Source: Candidatus Hermodarchaeota archaeon (GTDB taxonomy: Archaea; Asgardarchaeota; Lokiarchaeia; Sigyniarchaeales; SOKP01). Taken from it: a stretch of DNA of 37,963 bases. The notes beneath the pieces were generated by a model. The model was not told the DNA's origin and searched no databases. It saw nothing but the letters and a program-made list of their open reading frames with translations. Within the stretch, counting starts at the first letter, position 1, and the number at the start of each line of letters is the position of its first letter. This document shows positions 25,690-35,424 of the stretch, piece by piece. Location: NCBI GenBank assembly GCA_048885925.1, contig JBHLLG010000025.1, positions 1 to 37,963 of the forward strand. Reading direction: 5' to 3'. Position numbers and translations under genes: made by a program.

Positions 25690-25935
25690 ATTTTAGAATA
25701 ATTCAATGATTCTTTTTTTTATCTAAATAACAATTTAGCCTTAATTTTCTATCTTTTATTTCTTCTTTAAGAGATTTAGCTTCTGTTTGGTATTCTATAA
25801 ATTTCTCATCATCTCGAAGTTTTTCAGAGATCTCAATTAAATTCCTTGAAATCTCATACTTTTGAATGAAATTCTCTTCGATTAGATATTTGGATTTTAA
25901 TTCTTCTCTTTTTTTAATAAATCTTCTCTTATATT
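25690..25935 (-). pseudogene. Frameshifted fragment homologous to the 3' half of the longin-like gene 32156-33082
   Basis: IEENFIQKYEISRNLIEISEKLRDDEKFIEYQTEAKSLKEEIKDRKLRL versus IEENFIKKFEMSKKLIEISEKLRDEEKFIEYQTQSKSLKDEIRDRKLRL. Homology continues out of frame across A-runs on both sides (REDL upstream; ESLNYSK versus ESLEYSK downstream). Confidence 0.85.
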
Positions 25936-26001: not shown

Positions 26002-28443
26002 CTATAGTGTAATTTTTATTAATTCTATGTCGGTATAGATTTGATTGATCCTATAAATTAAAACGTCAGCTAATTCTTGAGAAATTTTTCCTCTATTCAA
26101 TAAGCAATCAACATTCCATATTGCTTGATCTAGTTGTTTTTGAGCACTTGTTAGGATACATTCTATATCTTGGTTCATTGAGATTTTGAACACTGCTTTT
26201 TCTAATTTGTGTATAGCTGCTCTAAGTAAATTATTTAAGCACCATCTATTACAGTAACTAATTTTTTCTTCAATAAAATCTACTAGATTTAATAAATCAA
26301 TTTCAATATTAGCAATCTCATAAGCTTGTTCTAATCCAGTTGAAACGCCCATTAGAATAACGATATTATCTCTAATGGAATGGATTGAATCAATAATATA
26401 TTCTACGTTTTCATCATCAATTAAATCTAATTTACCAAAAATCTCCACTTTAAATTCAGCAATTTGAATCATTATTTTCGCTATAGCATCATGAAATAAG
26501 CCACAGGTTATTTTACCATTTTCAACATAATTAAAAGCTTTTTGTAATTGTTCTTGAGCTAAGCATAATTTTCTATTAAGTATTTGGGCAAGAAATGAAC
26601 ACAGATTATTTTCTATGTATATCTTTAACTCTTCTAATTGCCAATAAACATAATTATAGGCATTATTCAATGTAATTTTAATTGTCTTTGAAGTATATCT
26701 TGTTTCTTCATCACCAATCCAATCTTGATCGTTATTTGTTGCATAAATTGATATTGTATAGTTACCAATTTTTAAAGGGATTGAAATGGTATAAAAAATA
26801 TCCTCCTCTGAAATAAATCCTGATGTTATAATATTTCCATTTTGATCTTTCACTTCATATTCAGCTGTACCGTAACTATCAATTATTCCATCATTTTCAA
26901 TGATTTTTATATTCCAATTAAAGGTTGTATAATCAAATTCATTTATAATAATTTCTGGAGGAGTAATATCATCATCAATAATCGTAACTGTCTCTGGACC
27001 ATAATAACTCGTTTCTTGATCATCTTCTCTATCGTTATCTGCATTTGCAGCACTCACTTCAATTTTATGATCTTCAGGGATATTGGGAACACTATAATTC
27101 CCTTCGATAATTCCACTTTGAATACCATCAATTAAGATTGAAATAGAGTCCACTCCGCTTTCGGGATCAGAAACTTGTACATTCCATTGACCAGGATCGC
27201 TATCAAGAGAAACTCCTGAATATTGAACATTTATTATTGGACCTGTAGTATCATCATCATTTATTGAAATTATATTCGATATCATGTTAGTTTCTTGATC
27301 AATTGTACCTCTATCAAGATCATTATTCCAAGCCTCTACTTTAATTTCATGTTGACCTAATGAATTCGGGACATTATAATTACCCGTAGAAGATCCAGCT
27401 AATAAATCATCGACATAAACTCTAACTTTTTTGATACCACTCTCAGGATCACTTACAGAAACCTTCCAAAATCCAGGATTTTCATCAGTTAATTCTCCAT
27501 TGTAATCAATATGTATTTGTGGTATACTGGTATCATCGTCGATAATATTAACATAATCATACTTTTCACTCCATAATCTATCATCATATCTATCATTATC
27601 ATTATCTTCAGCATAGATATAAAATATATGAGTACCTAACGAATTTGGTATCATTTGTGAACCAGATTCTTTCAAAAATGCGATTAATTTGCCGTCAACA
27701 TAAACAGATAAATCAAAAAATGAGCTTTGATCTGATACAATCCATGAAAACGTTCCAGGATTTCCATCTGTTCTTGTAACTATTCCTGTTGGGTTAATAG
27801 ATGTTGGTAATGTGGTTTGGATAGAAGGAGGATCACTATCATCGTCTAAAAAACTTAAAGAGCCTGCAGATTTCAGTATTGAGGTTAGATGATAAGTATT
27901 TCCTCCAGAATTTACTTTCAAATCTGATTTAACAAGAAAATAAGTCTCTATTGCATACCATATAAAACTATTTGTTGGAGAATTATAACACTTCCAGGTC
28001 TTAATATTTCCAATATTAGGAACATATAGTAATTCTTTTCCAATTACACCAAATATTCTATCATGATCACCCATACTAATAATTAAACTTCCACCGACAC
28101 GTAAATAATATTTGGGTGCGATATAAGGATCATGAGTATAATCAGAATAAATACTATTGCTATTATGAATCATTCTAGATTCTAAATCAACAGTCCAAGT
28201 CCAATGTTGACCATCATAGGACCCCCCTATAATGGTAAACTCTGCATTATAACTCTCTGAATCAGTATAAGTATATATTAAGTGTCCATCAAATACATCA
28301 GAATTTAATGTACAATCATATATTAAATCACAAACAACATTTGGGGACCCATTAAGGAACATTGAGAAGCAGTTAGAAATGGGCATTACTAATATTAGCA
28401 TTAAAAATAATATTATTTTTGCCTTTTGAAATTTAGATTTCAT
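26002..28443 (-). CDS. Secreted protein with four acidic Ig-like repeats and a helical C-terminal region
   Basis: Signal peptide MKSKFQKAKIILFLMLILVMP; repeats begin DDDxxxP and contain W...VSD.ESG, V.VDG, P...G.H.I...A.N.D.DR. Confidence 0.85.
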   Translation of the reverse strand: MKSKFQKAKIILFLMLILVMPISNCFSMFLNGSPNVVCDLIYDCTLNSDVFDGHLIYTYTDSESYNAEFTIIGGSYDGQHWTWTVDLESRMIHNSNSIYSDYTHDPYIAPKYYLRVGGSLIISMGDHDRIFGVIGKELLYVPNIGNIKTWKCYNSPTNSFIWYAIETYFLVKSDLKVNSGGNTYHLTSILKSAGSLSFLDDDSDPPSIQTTLPTSINPTGIVTRTDGNPGTFSWIVSDQSSFFDLSVYVDGKLIAFLKESGSQMIPNSLGTHIFYIYAEDNDNDRYDDRLWSEKYDYVNIIDDDTSIPQIHIDYNGELTDENPGFWKVSVSDPESGIKKVRVYVDDLLAGSSTGNYNVPNSLGQHEIKVEAWNNDLDRGTIDQETNMISNIISINDDDTTGPIINVQYSGVSLDSDPGQWNVQVSDPESGVDSISILIDGIQSGIIEGNYSVPNIPEDHKIEVSAANADNDREDDQETSYYGPETVTIIDDDITPPEIIINEFDYTTFNWNIKIIENDGIIDSYGTAEYEVKDQNGNIITSGFISEEDIFYTISIPLKIGNYTISIYATNNDQDWIGDEETRYTSKTIKITLNNAYNYVYWQLEELKIYIENNLCSFLAQILNRKLCLAQEQLQKAFNYVENGKITCGLFHDAIAKIMIQIAEFKVEIFGKLDLIDDENVEYIIDSIHSIRDNIVILMGVSTGLEQAYEIANIEIDLLNLVDFIEEKISYCNRWCLNNLLRAAIHKLEKAVFKISMNQDIECILTSAQKQLDQAIWNVDCLLNRGKISQELADVLIYRINQIYTDIELIKITL
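26670..27846 (-). repeat. Four tandem 94-102 aa protein repeats inside the 813-aa ORF
   Basis: DDD triplets at 27838-27846, 27532-27540, 27250-27258 and 26968-26976 (spacing 306, 282 and 282 nt). Confidence 0.85.
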
Positions 28444-28660: not shown

Positions 28661-30223
28661 ATGAATTTTAAATTCAATAGAAAAATATTGTTCATTCTTT
28701 TATTTTTTTTTCTTCTAAATAGTTTTTTTTTTGTAACTAATGATAATAATATAAAAATATCATTTCAACATAAATCTGAGATTGATAACTATACTCCCAG
28801 AATCGCTGACGAATCTGATATCTTCTCTAGTTTATCTCATGAATTACCTCATTTCTCAAATGCAAATTTTTCTATGCTTCACCAAATAGAAAATGACACA
28901 ATTTTAGCACATAATAGTCCTTTTACTCAAACTATTACTGTAACAATTTTTTGTGTCGATTTTCCAAACAAAGCTCACACTTTAACCGGGCAAGAAGTTG
29001 AAGAAAGATTCAATTCTGCTACATTAAATGATCTTAGAGACTATTGGAGTGAACTTTCAAAAGATCATTTAATATTAAATTTTGATATTCATGATTGGTA
29101 CACAGCGCCTAATAATGTTGAATATTATGCTACAGAAGGTTACTATCAAGGTTATTATATACCAGATAGAAGATTACTTGATTTAGTTGAAGAGGTTTAT
29201 GACTATTATGATGATACAGTTGATTTCAGTAATTATATATTCCAAGATTTGGCAGGGAATACAAGAAGTTATATTGGATTTATCCTACCAGGTTGGTGTG
29301 AATCATTTGGTCAGATTTATTCGGGTGATACATCAGATAGAGAATTTTGGTCATGTAAATGGGCAAATTATATAGATTTAGATGGTATAACAGTAAATAA
29401 TTTCTTTATAACTTCAGAATTTCCCAATTCTCCTGGAATTGCAACACATGAGTTTGGACATATGCTAGGTTTACCAGATCTCTACGATTTAACCGGTGTT
29501 GGAACTGGTGTGGGTGAATGGTGTTTGATGGGATATGGAGGAGGTTTAGGATATATAAATAATGATATTGATACTTTCGGTACAACTCCAGGACACTTAT
29601 GTGCATGGTCAAAAATCAAATTTGGTTGGGCAGACACACAAACTTTAAGGGTTGCTATAGAAGCTGAACAAGTTGAAATTGATGCTTTTAACCCTAATGA
29701 ACCATATTTTCCACGTATATATAAAATCCTTCGGTATACGAATGAGATAGAGTATTTTCTCCTCGAAGCAAGATTCCAAACCATACAAAGTTTTGATTAT
29801 TATATTGCTGATGAAGGACTTTTAATATTGCATGTTGATGAGGATAATCAACAGACTTTAGAAGGAGGTTATATGGTTGATGTTGAGGAGAATGAAGAAA
29901 CTCAAGAATTAGAAGATCAAACTTTAGAAAATTATGGGGATGAGGATGATTGCTGGGATGAAGGTGACATTTTTAGTTCAACTTCAAATCCAAATTCTAA
30001 TTGGTATGGGGGAACAGATTCAAAAGTGACTATAGAAGTAATTTCAATAGATCCTGATGAACGAATTATAGTTAGAATTACGGCTCCTAAGCCTCCTGAG
30101 CCTCCAATTGTTAACAGTTTTCCTATAGTAATATTATTAACAATTTCTTTTGCTGCAATTACCGTTGTATTGAAAAATACAAATGTAAAATCAAAGAAAA
30201 AATCACATTCTAAAAAATGTTAA
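28661..30223 (+). CDS. M6-family (immune inhibitor A-like) zinc metalloprotease with C-terminal membrane anchor/sorting signal
   Basis: Signal peptide; VDFP, DYW.E.S, HEFGHMLGLPDLYD (His codon at 29447), W.LM..G, P.HL.AWSK..GW, EYFLLEAR and GLLI.HVD; ends PKPPEPPIVNSFP + TM + KSKKK. Confidence 0.93.
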   Translation: MNFKFNRKILFILLFFFLLNSFFFVTNDNNIKISFQHKSEIDNYTPRIADESDIFSSLSHELPHFSNANFSMLHQIENDTILAHNSPFTQTITVTIFCVDFPNKAHTLTGQEVEERFNSATLNDLRDYWSELSKDHLILNFDIHDWYTAPNNVEYYATEGYYQGYYIPDRRLLDLVEEVYDYYDDTVDFSNYIFQDLAGNTRSYIGFILPGWCESFGQIYSGDTSDREFWSCKWANYIDLDGITVNNFFITSEFPNSPGIATHEFGHMLGLPDLYDLTGVGTGVGEWCLMGYGGGLGYINNDIDTFGTTPGHLCAWSKIKFGWADTQTLRVAIEAEQVEIDAFNPNEPYFPRIYKILRYTNEIEYFLLEARFQTIQSFDYYIADEGLLILHVDEDNQQTLEGGYMVDVEENEETQELEDQTLENYGDEDDCWDEGDIFSSTSNPNSNWYGGTDSKVTIEVISIDPDERIIVRITAPKPPEPPIVNSFPIVILLTISFAAITVVLKNTNVKSKKKSHSKKC

Positions 30224-30226
30224 ACT

Positions 30227-32023
30227 ATGCATCATTTTTATAATAAATCAATAAACTTTTTTTCTTTTCTTTTAGTAATAAGCACGGTAATTTTTCTGTT
30301 ATACATCATTTTACCAATAAAATTACTCAATTATCCTTTAGTGGAGTTCTTAAGAGTTTTATCTCATTTATTTAATCTTCAAATAATATTTGATGAAACT
30401 TTCAATACTTTCTATGTTTATACACCAGAATTGGTTGTACAATTAACAAACGAATCGTCAGGTTTTATATTTAATAGCTTTATTATTATTTTTGGCATTT
30501 TTTCGCCAATAAAATGGAGAAATTGTTTAGTTTCTATAATTATTTTTATTCCACTAAACTTTTTTTTAAATGCTTTTCGAATGCTTTTAATCTTTGTACT
30601 CTCATCTGATATCCACCTGTTTTACTTTTGTCATACCTTTTTTTCCATTTTCTATTATATCTTTATTTTTACTCTCTTTTTTCATTATATTTTGTTTAAA
30701 TATCCCCAGAATCCTATTAATCTATTTAATTTTAGTGTTTTACATAAAAAAAAAGAAAATAGGAACTTGATAAAAACTGTGGTCAATAAATCTAATTTAT
30801 TAGAATTATTCATTCTATCTTACATTATAGTTTCCTCATCAACTATCATTGGGATAACTTATGCTATATTATATCGAAATAGAACAATACAACCATATCC
30901 TATTGATATTGATAGGTATTTTAAACCAATAAGAATGATAAGAATTAATGAAACTCTTTACTTTGTCTGGGATTCTGAAAATAATATTAAAACAAGTATA
31001 TATTCACTTTATGATTCAAATATCACCAGTAAAATTTTTATGCAAAAAAGATCCCCTTCTCAATATTATATAGATCCTTTCATTCAATATGACAGTATTT
31101 CAAAAAATTTTATTATTACTGGAATATGTCAATATAGTGGATACATAGGAGATACTTGGATGCGTATCAAAGATGAACTTATAATTAATCAAACTGAATT
31201 ATTAGATTCAAATTTAAACAATGGGGTATACTTTCATCTAAGTAATGAGGAAACTGAACTTTTTAATAAAATACCACCTCCATCGTCCAATTTTATTAAT
31301 GAGTATTACTTTTTACTTGATGAAAATCAAAATCCTATATTTTTTATAAAAAGGGGTTTTGATGCAATTAAAATATTATTTTCTTATAATTTGACTAATT
31401 CACGTACATTATTCTCTGGAGAATCACGAAATTATAGAGTATGTGAAGATAACTTAAATAATACATATTTTTTCTTTAAATCTGAAAATAGATATTTTTA
31501 TTCAAATATAAAAAATTCAAATTTTAGTATTCCTCAAAGATTATCAAATCTTATAGAAATATCTACTGAAGCTGATCAACTTAATGTTTTTTGTGATTCT
31601 TCAAATGCTTTATACTTTATATGGTTAGAAAATCAAACACAAGTTTTTATAACATCTAATAAAACTGGTTCGTTTAGTATACCCCAATTATTGTATAATT
31701 CAAGTATTAATATCTCAAATCCAGTAATTGAATACTTAGATAACAGTACAGGATATATGACTTTTTGTGATGAGGATTACAAAATATATTTTTTTGAATT
31801 AAATGGGACAAAAATTATACATAATCGAATTTTCCAAGATGAAAGCTTATATCCTAAACCTTTAGTCTTTCCAGATCTGGAAATATTCCCAGATTTTACT
31901 GTTGCTCTTTTCTGGCGAAGAATATTAAAAATGGATTATAGTATTGCTCAATCTAAAAATGACATTGGATTCATTCAATATCTTGGTAATGGAAAATTTT
32001 CAGATTTAATTTATATTAGCTAA
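30227..32023 (+). CDS. Exosortase/archaeosortase-like membrane domain (Cys replaced by Ser) fused to an extracellular beta-propeller-like domain
   Basis: VVQLTNESSG (position of the v...CSG motif), P.NFFLNAFR (N..R motif) and FYFCH (His) with family-like spacing on TM helices; then a further TM helix and repeated D..N..YF.W....SN....FSIPQ.L units. Confidence 0.7.
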   Translation: MHHFYNKSINFFSFLLVISTVIFLLYIILPIKLLNYPLVEFLRVLSHLFNLQIIFDETFNTFYVYTPELVVQLTNESSGFIFNSFIIIFGIFSPIKWRNCLVSIIIFIPLNFFLNAFRMLLIFVLSSDIHLFYFCHTFFSIFYYIFIFTLFFHYILFKYPQNPINLFNFSVLHKKKENRNLIKTVVNKSNLLELFILSYIIVSSSTIIGITYAILYRNRTIQPYPIDIDRYFKPIRMIRINETLYFVWDSENNIKTSIYSLYDSNITSKIFMQKRSPSQYYIDPFIQYDSISKNFIITGICQYSGYIGDTWMRIKDELIINQTELLDSNLNNGVYFHLSNEETELFNKIPPPSSNFINEYYFLLDENQNPIFFIKRGFDAIKILFSYNLTNSRTLFSGESRNYRVCEDNLNNTYFFFKSENRYFYSNIKNSNFSIPQRLSNLIEISTEADQLNVFCDSSNALYFIWLENQTQVFITSNKTGSFSIPQLLYNSSINISNPVIEYLDNSTGYMTFCDEDYKIYFFELNGTKIIHNRIFQDESLYPKPLVFPDLEIFPDFTVALFWRRILKMDYSIAQSKNDIGFIQYLGNGKFSDLIYIS

Positions 32024-32155: not shown

Positions 32156-33082
32156 TTATATTTTTAAAGATAGTCGTTCATTAACTTCTTCTTCAATCAT
32201 CGATATATCTTTAAGAGTTTGCTTAAATTCCTCTCTTGAGACTTTGCTTTTATTAAGAATTTTTTTCGAAAGAGTTTTGTATTTCTCGATTAATGCGGGT
32301 TCAATAAAGTTTTCAAGTTTTAAACAAAAAGAATAAAGATATGAATAAATTTCTGCGTATTTAGAATATTCTAATGATTCCATTATTCGATCTAGATAAT
32401 ATTTTAATCTTAATTTCCGATCTCTGATTTCATCTTTAAGTGATTTGGATTGAGTTTGGTATTCAATAAATTTTTCTTCATCTCGAAGTTTTTCAGAGAT
32501 TTCAATTAATTTTTTTGACATTTCAAATTTCTTAATGAAATTTTCTTCTATTGAATACAATTTCTCTAATTCATCTCTTTCTTTTGATAAATCTTCCCTT
32601 AATTGCTCTGATAACGACCCTTTTTGTTCCCATATAGACTTTAATATCATGCTCTGATCTGCTGTTAGTGAGGATCCCGCTATAAGTTTTTTATTTGAAA
32701 GAATTAACTGAATAATTTTTAAATCAAAAATTTCAAGTTTTTCTGGTTTCCTATCCCAGTTAATAAATAAATCTTGATGACTGAGAATTGTTTCATTTAT
32801 TTTCGGTATTAACTTTTGAACTTCCTTTATGTCATCCTTATCTACAATAATGACTAAATCTGATAATATTTCAGAAATTCTTTCAATTAATACGAAATAT
32901 ACTCCTAATTCAATAGTACTTAAGGTTTCAGTGCTGCTTTCTGTAAGTTCTGATACAAAAGTTTGTAAAGCAGAAAAAAAAGAATCAAACATTTCTAATT
33001 TTTCATCACTTTGAAAGCTTTTATTATAAATAAGATCCTTTGTACTACTCTGAAAAATGTATAGTGCTTGTATCATTGCCAA
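32156..33082 (-). CDS. Longin-like N-terminal domain plus helical C-terminal domain (ATG at 33076 likely start)
   Basis: MIQALYIF....DLIY...F, FDSFFSALQTFVSEL, LSTIELG and LVIIVDKDD fit the longin-like beta-beta-alpha-beta-beta-beta-alpha pattern common in Asgard proteins. Confidence 0.7.
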   Translation of the reverse strand: MAMIQALYIFQSSTKDLIYNKSFQSDEKLEMFDSFFSALQTFVSELTESSTETLSTIELGVYFVLIERISEILSDLVIIVDKDDIKEVQKLIPKINETILSHQDLFINWDRKPEKLEIFDLKIIQLILSNKKLIAGSSLTADQSMILKSIWEQKGSLSEQLREDLSKERDELEKLYSIEENFIKKFEMSKKLIEISEKLRDEEKFIEYQTQSKSLKDEIRDRKLRLKYYLDRIMESLEYSKYAEIYSYLYSFCLKLENFIEPALIEKYKTLSKKILNKSKVSREEFKQTLKDISMIEEEVNERLSLKI

Positions 33083-34074: not shown

Positions 34075-35424
34075 ATGGTGAGAACTAAATTTAAAGTTTC
34101 AATGGGTTTGTTCGTTGTAGCACTAGTATTTATTAGCATTCCTATTGGAGCGGTTGCATGTAGAAGACCTCAATGGAGATTAATGGCTGGAGCATATAGC
34201 TTACCAATAACTCCAATGACAACAGCTGAAGGAATCCCTATTCATCCTGATGGGTCACAAGTTTACCTAGCAGGATTTGGTTCTTTTGGGAGTAGACCTG
34301 CTTCGAAAGTTCATGATGACATCTACGCAAGGTGTTTGATCCTAGATTATGATGGTAAGACAATTGTATTCGTACAACTTGACCTAATCGGTTTTATGAT
34401 TGATCAGGTTGATTTGGTGAGGCAAGAAGTAGAAAATTTATATGGGATAGAGGCAGACAATGTTATTATAGCCTGTACACACACACATTCGGGACCTGAC
34501 ACCTTAGGACTCTGGAATTCATGGTATCCAGCTCCGGGAGTCAATTGGCCGTATATGAATTATATAAGAAATCAGATCCTAGATTGCGTAGGCAATGCAT
34601 ATCTAAGTATGGAACAGGCTAGCATACGATTTGCTTCGACAACTGTTCCAGGATTGATGAAAAACTCTCGTGACCCTGGCAGAGTATATCCAGATTTGGA
34701 AGTAATGAAAGTCGACAACAGGAGAGGCAAAACCATTGCAACAATGATCAACTACGCAGGCCATCCTGAGGTCCTTTGGTCAAACAACCTAGAATTAACC
34801 TCAGACTACGTTGGTTATCTTTGTAATAAAGTTGAAGAAAAGCTAGGAGGCGTTGCGGTCTTTATGAATGGGGCATTAGGAGGAATGATAACTCCAGATA
34901 CTGATGAACATACATTCGAGAAAGCAAAAGAGATTGGACATACTCTCGCATATGCTACTATAAGAGCACTAAAATCTCGCAGATCCTACGCGTGGGGCAT
35001 TTTTATCCCTAGCTGGAAAGGAACTTTTAAAGTAGAAAAACAGATTTTTGAAGTTCCCTTGGAAAATCTCGATTTTTTTTACGCTATGATGGGAGGTATC
35101 CTTTATAGATCCGATCCTTGGTATAAATTTCCATACGGTGAGTTCCCTTTAGGCATAATTACAACTGAGGTCAATGTAATTACTATTGGAAAAGCTCAGA
35201 TGATCACAATGCCAGGAGAAGTATTGCCTAGTATAGGATACCGCTTGAAAGAGGCTATGACGGGAAAATTTAACTTCCAAATTGGACTGGCTAACGATGA
35301 GTTAGGTTATATAATTCCTGCAGATGAATGGAATCCTGATGAATACGAGGAATCAATGTCCGTAGGCGTGCAAACTGGTATTGCCATGGAAGCAATTCTC
35401 ATGGAGATGCTTGAAGGAACTTGA
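34075..35424 (+). CDS. Secreted neutral/alkaline ceramidase-like metallo-amidohydrolase
   Basis: Signal peptide; ITP, LAGF, VHDDIYAR, IACTHTHSGP, NYAGHP, GALGG, PGE, GLANDELGYI and YEE. Confidence 0.85.
   Translation: MVRTKFKVSMGLFVVALVFISIPIGAVACRRPQWRLMAGAYSLPITPMTTAEGIPIHPDGSQVYLAGFGSFGSRPASKVHDDIYARCLILDYDGKTIVFVQLDLIGFMIDQVDLVRQEVENLYGIEADNVIIACTHTHSGPDTLGLWNSWYPAPGVNWPYMNYIRNQILDCVGNAYLSMEQASIRFASTTVPGLMKNSRDPGRVYPDLEVMKVDNRRGKTIATMINYAGHPEVLWSNNLELTSDYVGYLCNKVEEKLGGVAVFMNGALGGMITPDTDEHTFEKAKEIGHTLAYATIRALKSRRSYAWGIFIPSWKGTFKVEKQIFEVPLENLDFFYAMMGGILYRSDPWYKFPYGEFPLGIITTEVNVITIGKAQMITMPGEVLPSIGYRLKEAMTGKFNFQIGLANDELGYIIPADEWNPDEYEESMSVGVQTGIAMEAILMEMLEGT

Follow-up and report, generated by a model that had tools for sequence, protein, structure and literature searches.

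A cysteine-less probable relative of exosortases and archaeosortases, fused to a predicted β-propeller and encoded beside an M6 protease in an Asgard archaeon

Exosortases and archaeosortases share a fold in which a polytopic core carries an outward sheet ahead of the catalytic helix, and they are regarded as cysteine enzymes whose Cys, Arg and His hardly vary, the third catalytic residue being Arg in ArtA. Cys, Arg and His have been described as nearly perfectly conserved across an otherwise divergent family, and dedicated enzyme–target pairs encoded in adjacent genes as a known pattern (10.1101/2023.06.07.544157). Mutation of the residues predicted to form the active site of ArtA is reported to have borne out that they matter (10.1101/2023.06.07.544157, PMC6098224). 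The rhombosortases, serine enzymes, process another C-terminal tripartite signal, GlyGly-CTERM (10.1101/2023.06.07.544157, PMC3237569). Here we analyse a stretch of 37,963 nucleotides from Candidatus Hermodarchaeota archaeon (GenBank assembly GCA_048885925.1, contig JBHLLG010000025.1, positions 1 to 37,963 of the forward strand), referred to below as the window, which has a G+C content of ~26% and is contig C25 of a genome (G000) of 3.9 Mb in 181 contigs. Its gene at 30227..32023 on the forward strand encodes a protein of 598 amino acids (aa), here called X, which probably begins with a remote member of the exosortase/archaeosortase family, has no Cys at or near the expected nucleophile and ends in a predicted extracellular β-propeller. 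A search of the literature, made in a limited library, found no description of a cysteine-less or inactive sortase-family protein or of the fusion seen in X.

Somewhat better than an even chance attaches, in our judgement, to a reading in which X is a pseudo-archaeosortase membrane module that is evolutionarily constrained, non-catalytic in the way known for the family, and carries a variable extracellular propeller. The N-terminal domain (N-domain) would then be a remote sortase fold from which Cys is gone, as is His in most relatives, and in which what is left, close to the outer face of the membrane, is an Asn..Arg motif together with a conserved polar patch, [S/T]74-N75-E76. Next would come a basic loop in the cytoplasm and a further transmembrane helix, and the last 380 aa would form an extracellular propeller of lectin/sialidase type, probably N-glycosylated. 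The sortase-like part would cut no C-terminal sorting signals and would serve as a constrained membrane support for a fast-evolving binding domain. The X gene sits in a 6.7-kb strain-specific island of surface genes, together with those of an M6 protease and of a protein with immunoglobulin-like (Ig) repeats.

In its general layout X resembles the exosortase/archaeosortase family (e.g. ArtA of Haloferax volcanii), with a predicted polytopic core, a predicted short sheet before three helices and the Asn..Arg motif, but it differs in having no conserved Cys and a variable third catalytic residue. That residues ~1–165 (30227..30721) constitute a remote family domain is, as said, probable. TIGR04178, the exosortase/archaeosortase signature (97 model positions, curated cut-off of 23 bits), is the only NCBIfam match of full-length X, at 19.8 bits and under the cut-off; it is also the sole NCBIfam family for all four full-length relatives. 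With the N-domain alone as query, in three members of the family, it is again the only one of 18,950 models reached at E<=10 in every case, with scores of 24.1 bits for residues ~1–165 of X, 23.9 and 22.9 bits, two of which attain the cut-off. In a six-frame search of the genome with this model, X scores 25.8 bits and is second only to archaeosortase H (ArtH) at 39.1 bits, the next scores being 14.6 and 13.2. The match on X begins at residue 80 and spans model positions 14–89; the Cys corresponds to model position 7 by the alignment of ArtH, so that the match starts after the Cys motif. Full-length X has no Pfam match at E<=1, and the exosortase family PF09721 is the only Pfam match of the N-domain at E<=10.

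Comparisons of other kinds point the same way. When a nine-row alignment of the X N-domain is set against the cores of 28 Asgard sortases, taken from the loci of a TIGR04178 scan, hhalign gives a probability of 67.5% and E 5e-5 over 108 columns, as compared with E 0.046–0.5 for four reversed-sequence controls. In the ESM Atlas, 30 of 30 matches of X residues 1–170 are clusters of Exosortase_EpsH (PF09721), with a score of 0.91 and 204 of 256 features shared. The AlphaFold2 (AF2) model of the N-domain has helices at 2–28 and 31–48, three strands within 54–73, and helices at 77–92, 97–125 and 129–158. R118 and H136 of X are 18 residues apart, the same spacing as between R160 and H178 in the ArtH of the same genome. 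The original prediction had recognized this family layout in the first ~160 aa from the strings VVQLTNESSGF, LNAFR and FCH, all of which are present in the translation of X. Its suggested profile check of residues 1–165 came out above chance and with moderate support from TIGR04178, hhalign and the ESM Atlas, but a reverse search with a hidden Markov model (HMM) remained non-significant (see below).

What is left of the active site can be judged from the columns of a 10-row alignment of the N-domain, eight rows of which cover positions 115–136. In place of the Cys-small-Gly motif of sortases X has T74-N75-E76-S77-S78-G79 (30446..30463; codons ACA AAC GAA TCG TCA GGT). The Cys column can be placed only within residues 73–77: HMMER sets it on S77 (on N75 for the 25%-identical relative P0009) and hhalign on T74 or L73, so the candidate residues are 73 (L/F), 74 (S/T), 75 (N) and 77 (S/I/L). 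No conserved Cys column occurs anywhere in residues 60–140 of this alignment, C71 being present in two of ten rows, with C100 and C135 confined to the window copy. The lack of Cys at or near the nucleophile position, which had been the starting point of the original prediction, thus holds for every relative. Its codon assignments are correct as well (TCG at 30455–30457 for S77, CGA at 30578–30580 for R118 and CAT at 30632–30634 for H136), and TCG is, as can be read directly off the sequence, two substitutions away from TGC/TGT. That S77 stems from an error in sequencing or from a recent exchange of Cys for Ser can be rejected because no relative has Cys there.

The two residues on which a serine-type enzyme had been proposed fare differently. 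S77, the supposed nucleophile, is Ser in two rows, Ile in four and Leu in four, the relatives that are 55–56% identical over the N-domain having Ile; H136, taken to be a kept catalytic residue, is His in the window copy only (one of eight rows) and is Asp in six and Gln in one. Because S77 and H136 vary whereas Cys, Arg and His are nearly invariant in the family, the serine-nucleophile reading as originally worded is unsupported; the alternative mentioned with it, a pseudo-enzyme, fits better. Conservation is concentrated elsewhere: position 74 is Ser or Thr in all ten rows, N75 and E76 are present in all ten, S78 and G79 in nine each, and Q72 is also conserved. N115 and R118, which belong to the N115-A-F-R118 stretch (30569..30580) and align with the N..R motif of the Asgard sortases, are found in all eight covering rows. 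To judge by these columns, X appears to have lost catalysis, and position 74, with its conserved hydroxyl, leaves room for a weaker serine-type version.

X belongs to a very rare family. Nine proteins were found at E<=0.001 in a set of 5.8 billion proteins and seven in a set of 1.84 billion representatives, the latter including three full-length clusters at 50% identity, and X is present in 4 of 399 genomes of the phylum (G000 with the window, G001, G022 and G244). A scan of genome contigs returned three loci in two metagenome-assembled genomes of Promethearchaeota (Asgard); no X locus was found in two metagenome contig scans (with the family alignment and with P0009 as queries) or in a viral contig scan, the latter giving no sign that the X gene rides on a virus. 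Full-length frames of 579–716 aa exist in at least seven relatives (P0002, P0003, P0005, P0008, P0009, P0010 and G001), and the G022 copy is frameshifted into 114 and 482 aa.

Within this family the N-domain of X shows purifying selection and the ectodomain evolves fast. The ratio of non-synonymous to synonymous substitution rates (dN/dS) of the N-domain is 0.17 between G001 and G244 (195 codons, 94% identity), 0.31 between G000 and G001, where the comparison is saturated, and ~0.5 against the frameshifted G022 copy; for the C-terminal domain (C-domain) it is 0.48–1.15 among the G001 and G244 copies. A recent pseudogene is rejected for the window copy of X, given purifying selection on the N-domain and the open frames in relatives. 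The original prediction had named close homologues that all carry Cys, beside a decaying window copy, as evidence against itself; what was found is a family without this Cys and with a selected N-domain. In G244 a contig end with the N-terminal part of X overlaps two contig ends with C-terminal parts, by 119/119 and 121/121 nt (L020, L021, L022), and the two C-termini are 85% identical to each other, which indicates either two paralogues or strain alleles with a common N-domain.

The large ectodomain to which the sortase-like part had been said to be fused is borne out as a predicted β-propeller. The AF2 model of residues 217–598 (382 aa) is an all-β propeller with a pTM of 0.67, in which ~100 residues (82–184 of the 382) are of low confidence. 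Foldseek returns at least 500 matches in the PDB at E<=0.001, led by the seven-bladed PLL/PHL lectins of Photorhabdus (E 1.2e-8, TM score 0.49–0.56) and followed by sialidase-like hydrolases; over the lectin and sialidase-like matches, E ranges from 1.2e-8 to 1e-5 and TM scores from 0.45 to 0.56, with a Foldseek probability of 1.0. The C-domain is thus predicted to be alike in fold to PLL/PHL lectins and to six-bladed sialidase-like propellers, at sequence identities of 7–12%. It matches no Pfam family, and its ESM neighbours are mostly unnamed clusters, with a weak lead to BNR_4, present in 12% of one cluster. A basic loop at 158–190 with seven K/R, presumably cytoplasmic, precedes an extra transmembrane helix at residues 188–219 (30788..30883), suggested by the AF2 model, hydropathy and loop charges, which leads into the ectodomain at residues 220–598 (30884..32020). 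The C-domain contains 12 N-X-S/T sequons, as compared with 5.4 ± 2.0 in shuffled sequences. Together with the positive-inside pattern, the sequon excess would place the propeller outside of the cell, and it may serve in binding.

In the same genome the conventional sorting enzyme is represented by ArtH on contig C58 (L001:1174-2085), which scores 311.7 bits on NF041736 (cut-off 200) and has Cys110, R160 and H178. X shares the organism and probably the general fold family with ArtH but has no NF041736 match at E<=10. By regular expression the genome encodes 27 PGF-like C-terminal tails, ~20 being I[PS]G[YF] tails with a helix and a basic end; four tested tails all match the Loki-CTERM model from position 1, with 14.9–27.2 bits and two of the four above the cut-off of 19.9. 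We infer that ArtH is the enzyme for the Loki-CTERM proteins; no mention of Loki-CTERM was found in the literature searched. X also stands apart from the 28 Asgard sortases, none of which has the C-terminal helix and the fusion to a 380-aa propeller; the long Asgard forms inspected have extra N-terminal membrane repeats and not a C-terminal fusion. Long forms of ArtH-type archaeosortases, of 570 and 486 aa, are found in a sister genus (L044 in G188 and L047 in G186), with two N-terminal four-helix membrane modules before the sortase core and, in one of them, a C-terminal Cys-rich zinc-ribbon-like tail. The rhombosortases differ in both fold and active site, theirs being an unrelated rhomboid fold, and X has no conserved Ser–His pair; its N-domain matches no rhomboid model at E<=10 in Pfam or NCBIfam.

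Directly upstream of X lies the gene of an M6 family metalloprotease of 520 aa (28661..30223, forward strand). It scores 130.6 bits on TIGR03296 (cut-off 110.8) and 2e-11 on PF05547, is present as a single copy in the genome, starts with a hydrophobic signal-like segment and carries the zinc motif HEFGH, which is shared by all four full-length orthologues. Its frame ends with AAA TGT TAA (TAA at 30221–30223) and is followed by ACT and the ATG of X at 30227, which confirms the reported spacing of 3 nt on one strand. The last 45 aa (30086..30220) form a tail as originally described, i.e. a Pro-rich PPEPP linker, IVNSF, a hydrophobic helix and a basic end, and this tail looks like a degenerate Loki-CTERM signal: it has the similar helix and basic end of Loki-CTERM substrates but carries VNS(F) where these have IPG[YF], and reaches only 15.5 bits on NF033507, below the cut-off, over model positions 4–22 only. 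This type of tail is unique within the genome. Among the 45 M6 relatives listed it occurs in four, the protease itself and the three metagenomic orthologues P0016–P0018, whose tails share PPxPP[IV].[GS][FI][GP][EI], with a helix and a basic end after it; P0017 is an intact orthologue with four differing positions in its tail. No Loki-CTERM match at E<=10 was found for P0016–P0018 or for the remnant in G001.

M6 relatives are found in 4 of 134 family genomes: intact in G000, as a 115-aa remnant directly upstream of an intact X in G001, as a 38-aa relic in G270, and as a different protein of 866 aa in G243. X is present without an upstream M6 in G244, and G022 has the frameshifted X and no M6. 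Adjacency is therefore seen in two of the four X-bearing genomes (G000 and, with the remnant, G001), in two different genomic contexts, and since M6 is absent or truncated beside X in G244 and G001, X can persist without it. Of the dedicated enzyme–target pair that had been proposed, the operon-like neighbour with its tail stands, but the exclusive pairing is weakly conserved, with M6 intact beside X in one of four genomes, a remnant in one and absent in two. The G270 relic, an M6 C-terminus of 61% identity at ~41015–41128 of contig C7 (L026), is intergenic, has no X nearby and marks where a copy of the cassette has been lost. A complex prediction with the X N-domain and the last 96 aa of M6, run without controls, gave a score of 0.01 and a mark of 0.32 and speaks neither for nor against binding.

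A number of results weigh against the proposal that X is a non-catalytic relative of sortases. On the side of kinship, three further full-length relatives of X reach only 20.3, 19.9 and 18.5 bits on TIGR04178, all under the cut-off, and in a scan of 61 genomes with this model unrelated membrane proteins come close, with 17.2–17.7 bits (two of the four sub-cut-off matches were inspected, and both were unrelated). PF09721 scores only 7.9 and 11.4 bits, although the genuine ArtH also misses this family; hhalign against six ArtH-type sequences alone gives E 0.41; the reverse HMM search from the X family profile does not find sortases significantly, with a best full-sequence E of 0.92; and an HMM built from the 28 Asgard cores has near-zero scores on X after bias correction. 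The AF2 model of the N-domain, made from a 10-row alignment, is of middling confidence (pLDDT 68, pTM 0.57), structure searches gave no match, and no solved sortase structure exists for comparison. With composition correction off, moreover, the X family profile gives 244 bits to a 3005-aa open frame, a match driven by composition only; this frame (contig C3, from 29231, forward strand) consists almost entirely of hydrophobic helices and looks like a giant polytopic protein. Such strong composition effects, the ~17-bit scores of unrelated membrane proteins, the failed reverse search and the structure searches without a match are what one would expect if the N-terminus were a generic polytopic anchor without any sortase kinship, its weak matches stemming from an Ile/Phe/Leu-rich composition in an AT-rich genome. 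We nevertheless hold this to be quite improbable, since such an anchor would hardly single out TIGR04178 in all domain-only and full-length queries and PF09721 in Pfam, leave the reversed hhalign controls three to four orders of magnitude weaker, have exosortase clusters as its only ESM neighbours, and share the N..R motif and the R-to-H spacing with ArtH. Even less probable is that a sortase fusion which was once active has decayed in the window to a non-functional relic: the patchy distribution over 4 of 399 genomes, the frameshift in G022 and the M6 remnants in G001 and G270 would suit decay, but the full-length frames in at least seven relatives, an N-domain dN/dS of 0.17–0.31 and the invariant polar motifs do not.

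With regard to the loss of catalysis, [S/T]74, N75-E76, R118 and position 136, which is mostly acidic, are found at the same depth of the membrane, and a polar patch at one depth would also suit a re-tooled active site, which is a further point against our reading and leaves the loss of catalysis as something deduced. X could thus be an active dedicated sorting enzyme with a nucleophile other than Cys, in which [S/T]74 or S78 together with E76/R118 cleaves the M6 tail. The conservation of these positions (Ser or Thr at 74, N75 and E76 in 10/10 rows each, S78 in 9/10, R118 in 8/8), the one hhalign run that sets T74 on the Cys column, purifying selection on the N-domain and the precedent of the rhombosortases, which PMC3237569 and 10.1101/2023.06.07.544157 present as intramembrane serine sorting proteases of another fold, would be in line with this. 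Such an enzyme seems quite unlikely, however, in view of Ile or Leu at S77 in 8/10 rows, the H/D/Q variation at the third catalytic position, the exchange of Ser and Thr at position 74, other alignments that set L73, N75 or S77 on the Cys column, and an M6 partner that is dispensable in relatives. A different role for the tail would be that of a ligand: the dead sortase-like domain would bind it without cutting and tether the protease to the propeller in a surface complex. With Cys and His missing from X and IPG from the M6 tail, both enzyme and signal look disarmed; the two genes lie on one strand with 3 nt between them, extreme rarity is common to the M6 orthologue group and X, which are found together, their adjacency is kept in the two genomic contexts of G000 and G001, the tail keeps a Loki-CTERM-like helix, with VNS for IPG, and its orthologues share a motif before the helix, and adjacent enzyme–target pairs are described in 10.1101/2023.06.07.544157. 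This tethering is still rather unlikely, given an X without upstream M6 in G244, an M6 cut to 115 aa beside an intact X in G001, and neither gene intact in G022. There is a minor though appreciable chance that the locus encodes a disarmed pair, in which, at the surface of the Asgard cell, a pseudo-archaeosortase lacking Cys and His recognizes without cleaving and so holds an M6 protease with a Pro-Gly-less signal on a lectin-like propeller, or, in a bolder version, that [S/T]74-N75-E76/R118 is a cysteine-free active site.

Whether or not the two proteins interact, X belongs to a genomic island that can be delimited. The neighbouring gene of 308 aa, intact in the window at 32156–33082 (reverse strand), is found in 22 of 24 genomes of the genus and directly adjoins a 170-aa gene, with nothing between, in all ten other loci compared. 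In the window, however, the two are separated by 6.7 kb that hold X, M6 and a protein of 813 aa, and because this insert is present in the window alone of the loci compared, X belongs to a strain-specific surface-protein island. The island is bracketed by a 175-nt direct repeat of 80% identity, with its copies 6669 nt apart: copy 1 (25714..25888), at the island boundary, is a fragment of the 308-aa gene, its translation being 64% identical (E 2e-29) to residues 156–232 of the encoded protein, and copy 2 (32383..32557) lies inside the intact gene. The flanking genes are syntenic in G000 and G022 and 67–92% identical, as opposed to 41–45% for X. The third island gene, at 26002..28443 on the reverse strand, encodes the 813-aa surface protein with Ig-like modules, which has Big_7 (3.7e-6) and Y_Y_Y matches and no NCBIfam match, and whose modules repeat every 282 nt; it has a signal-like N-terminus, each module opens with a DDD-rich motif, and a helical domain stands at the end. 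A scan for promoters and terminators was uninformative, with 31 sites against 31.2 expected and 0 terminators. Further downstream in the window, at 34075–35424 (forward strand), lies a gene for a 449-aa protein with a signal-like N-terminus and a match to the N-terminal domain of neutral/alkaline ceramidases (PF04734, 7.2e-15), and the 2 kb around it have 37% G+C as compared with ~26% in the rest of the window.

The practical value of these observations is limited by rarity, with three clusters at 50% identity in 1.84 billion representatives and 4 of 399 genomes. For the family, the point of interest is its standing as one of cysteine enzymes: a branch under selection without Cys and His, fused to an outward propeller, would show that the fold can be put to uses other than cleavage or can operate by a different chemistry. 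If the disarmed pair should prove true, a sortase-family fold would for the first time be seen to have been reused as a membrane receptor dedicated to a C-terminal tail. For the Asgard archaea, whose cell surface is scantly known, the locus adds a fast-evolving, strain-specific surface module of 6.7 kb, consisting of the propeller protein, the M6 protease and the Ig-repeat protein. In other microbes, such surface loci mark interactions with partners, prey polymers or viruses.

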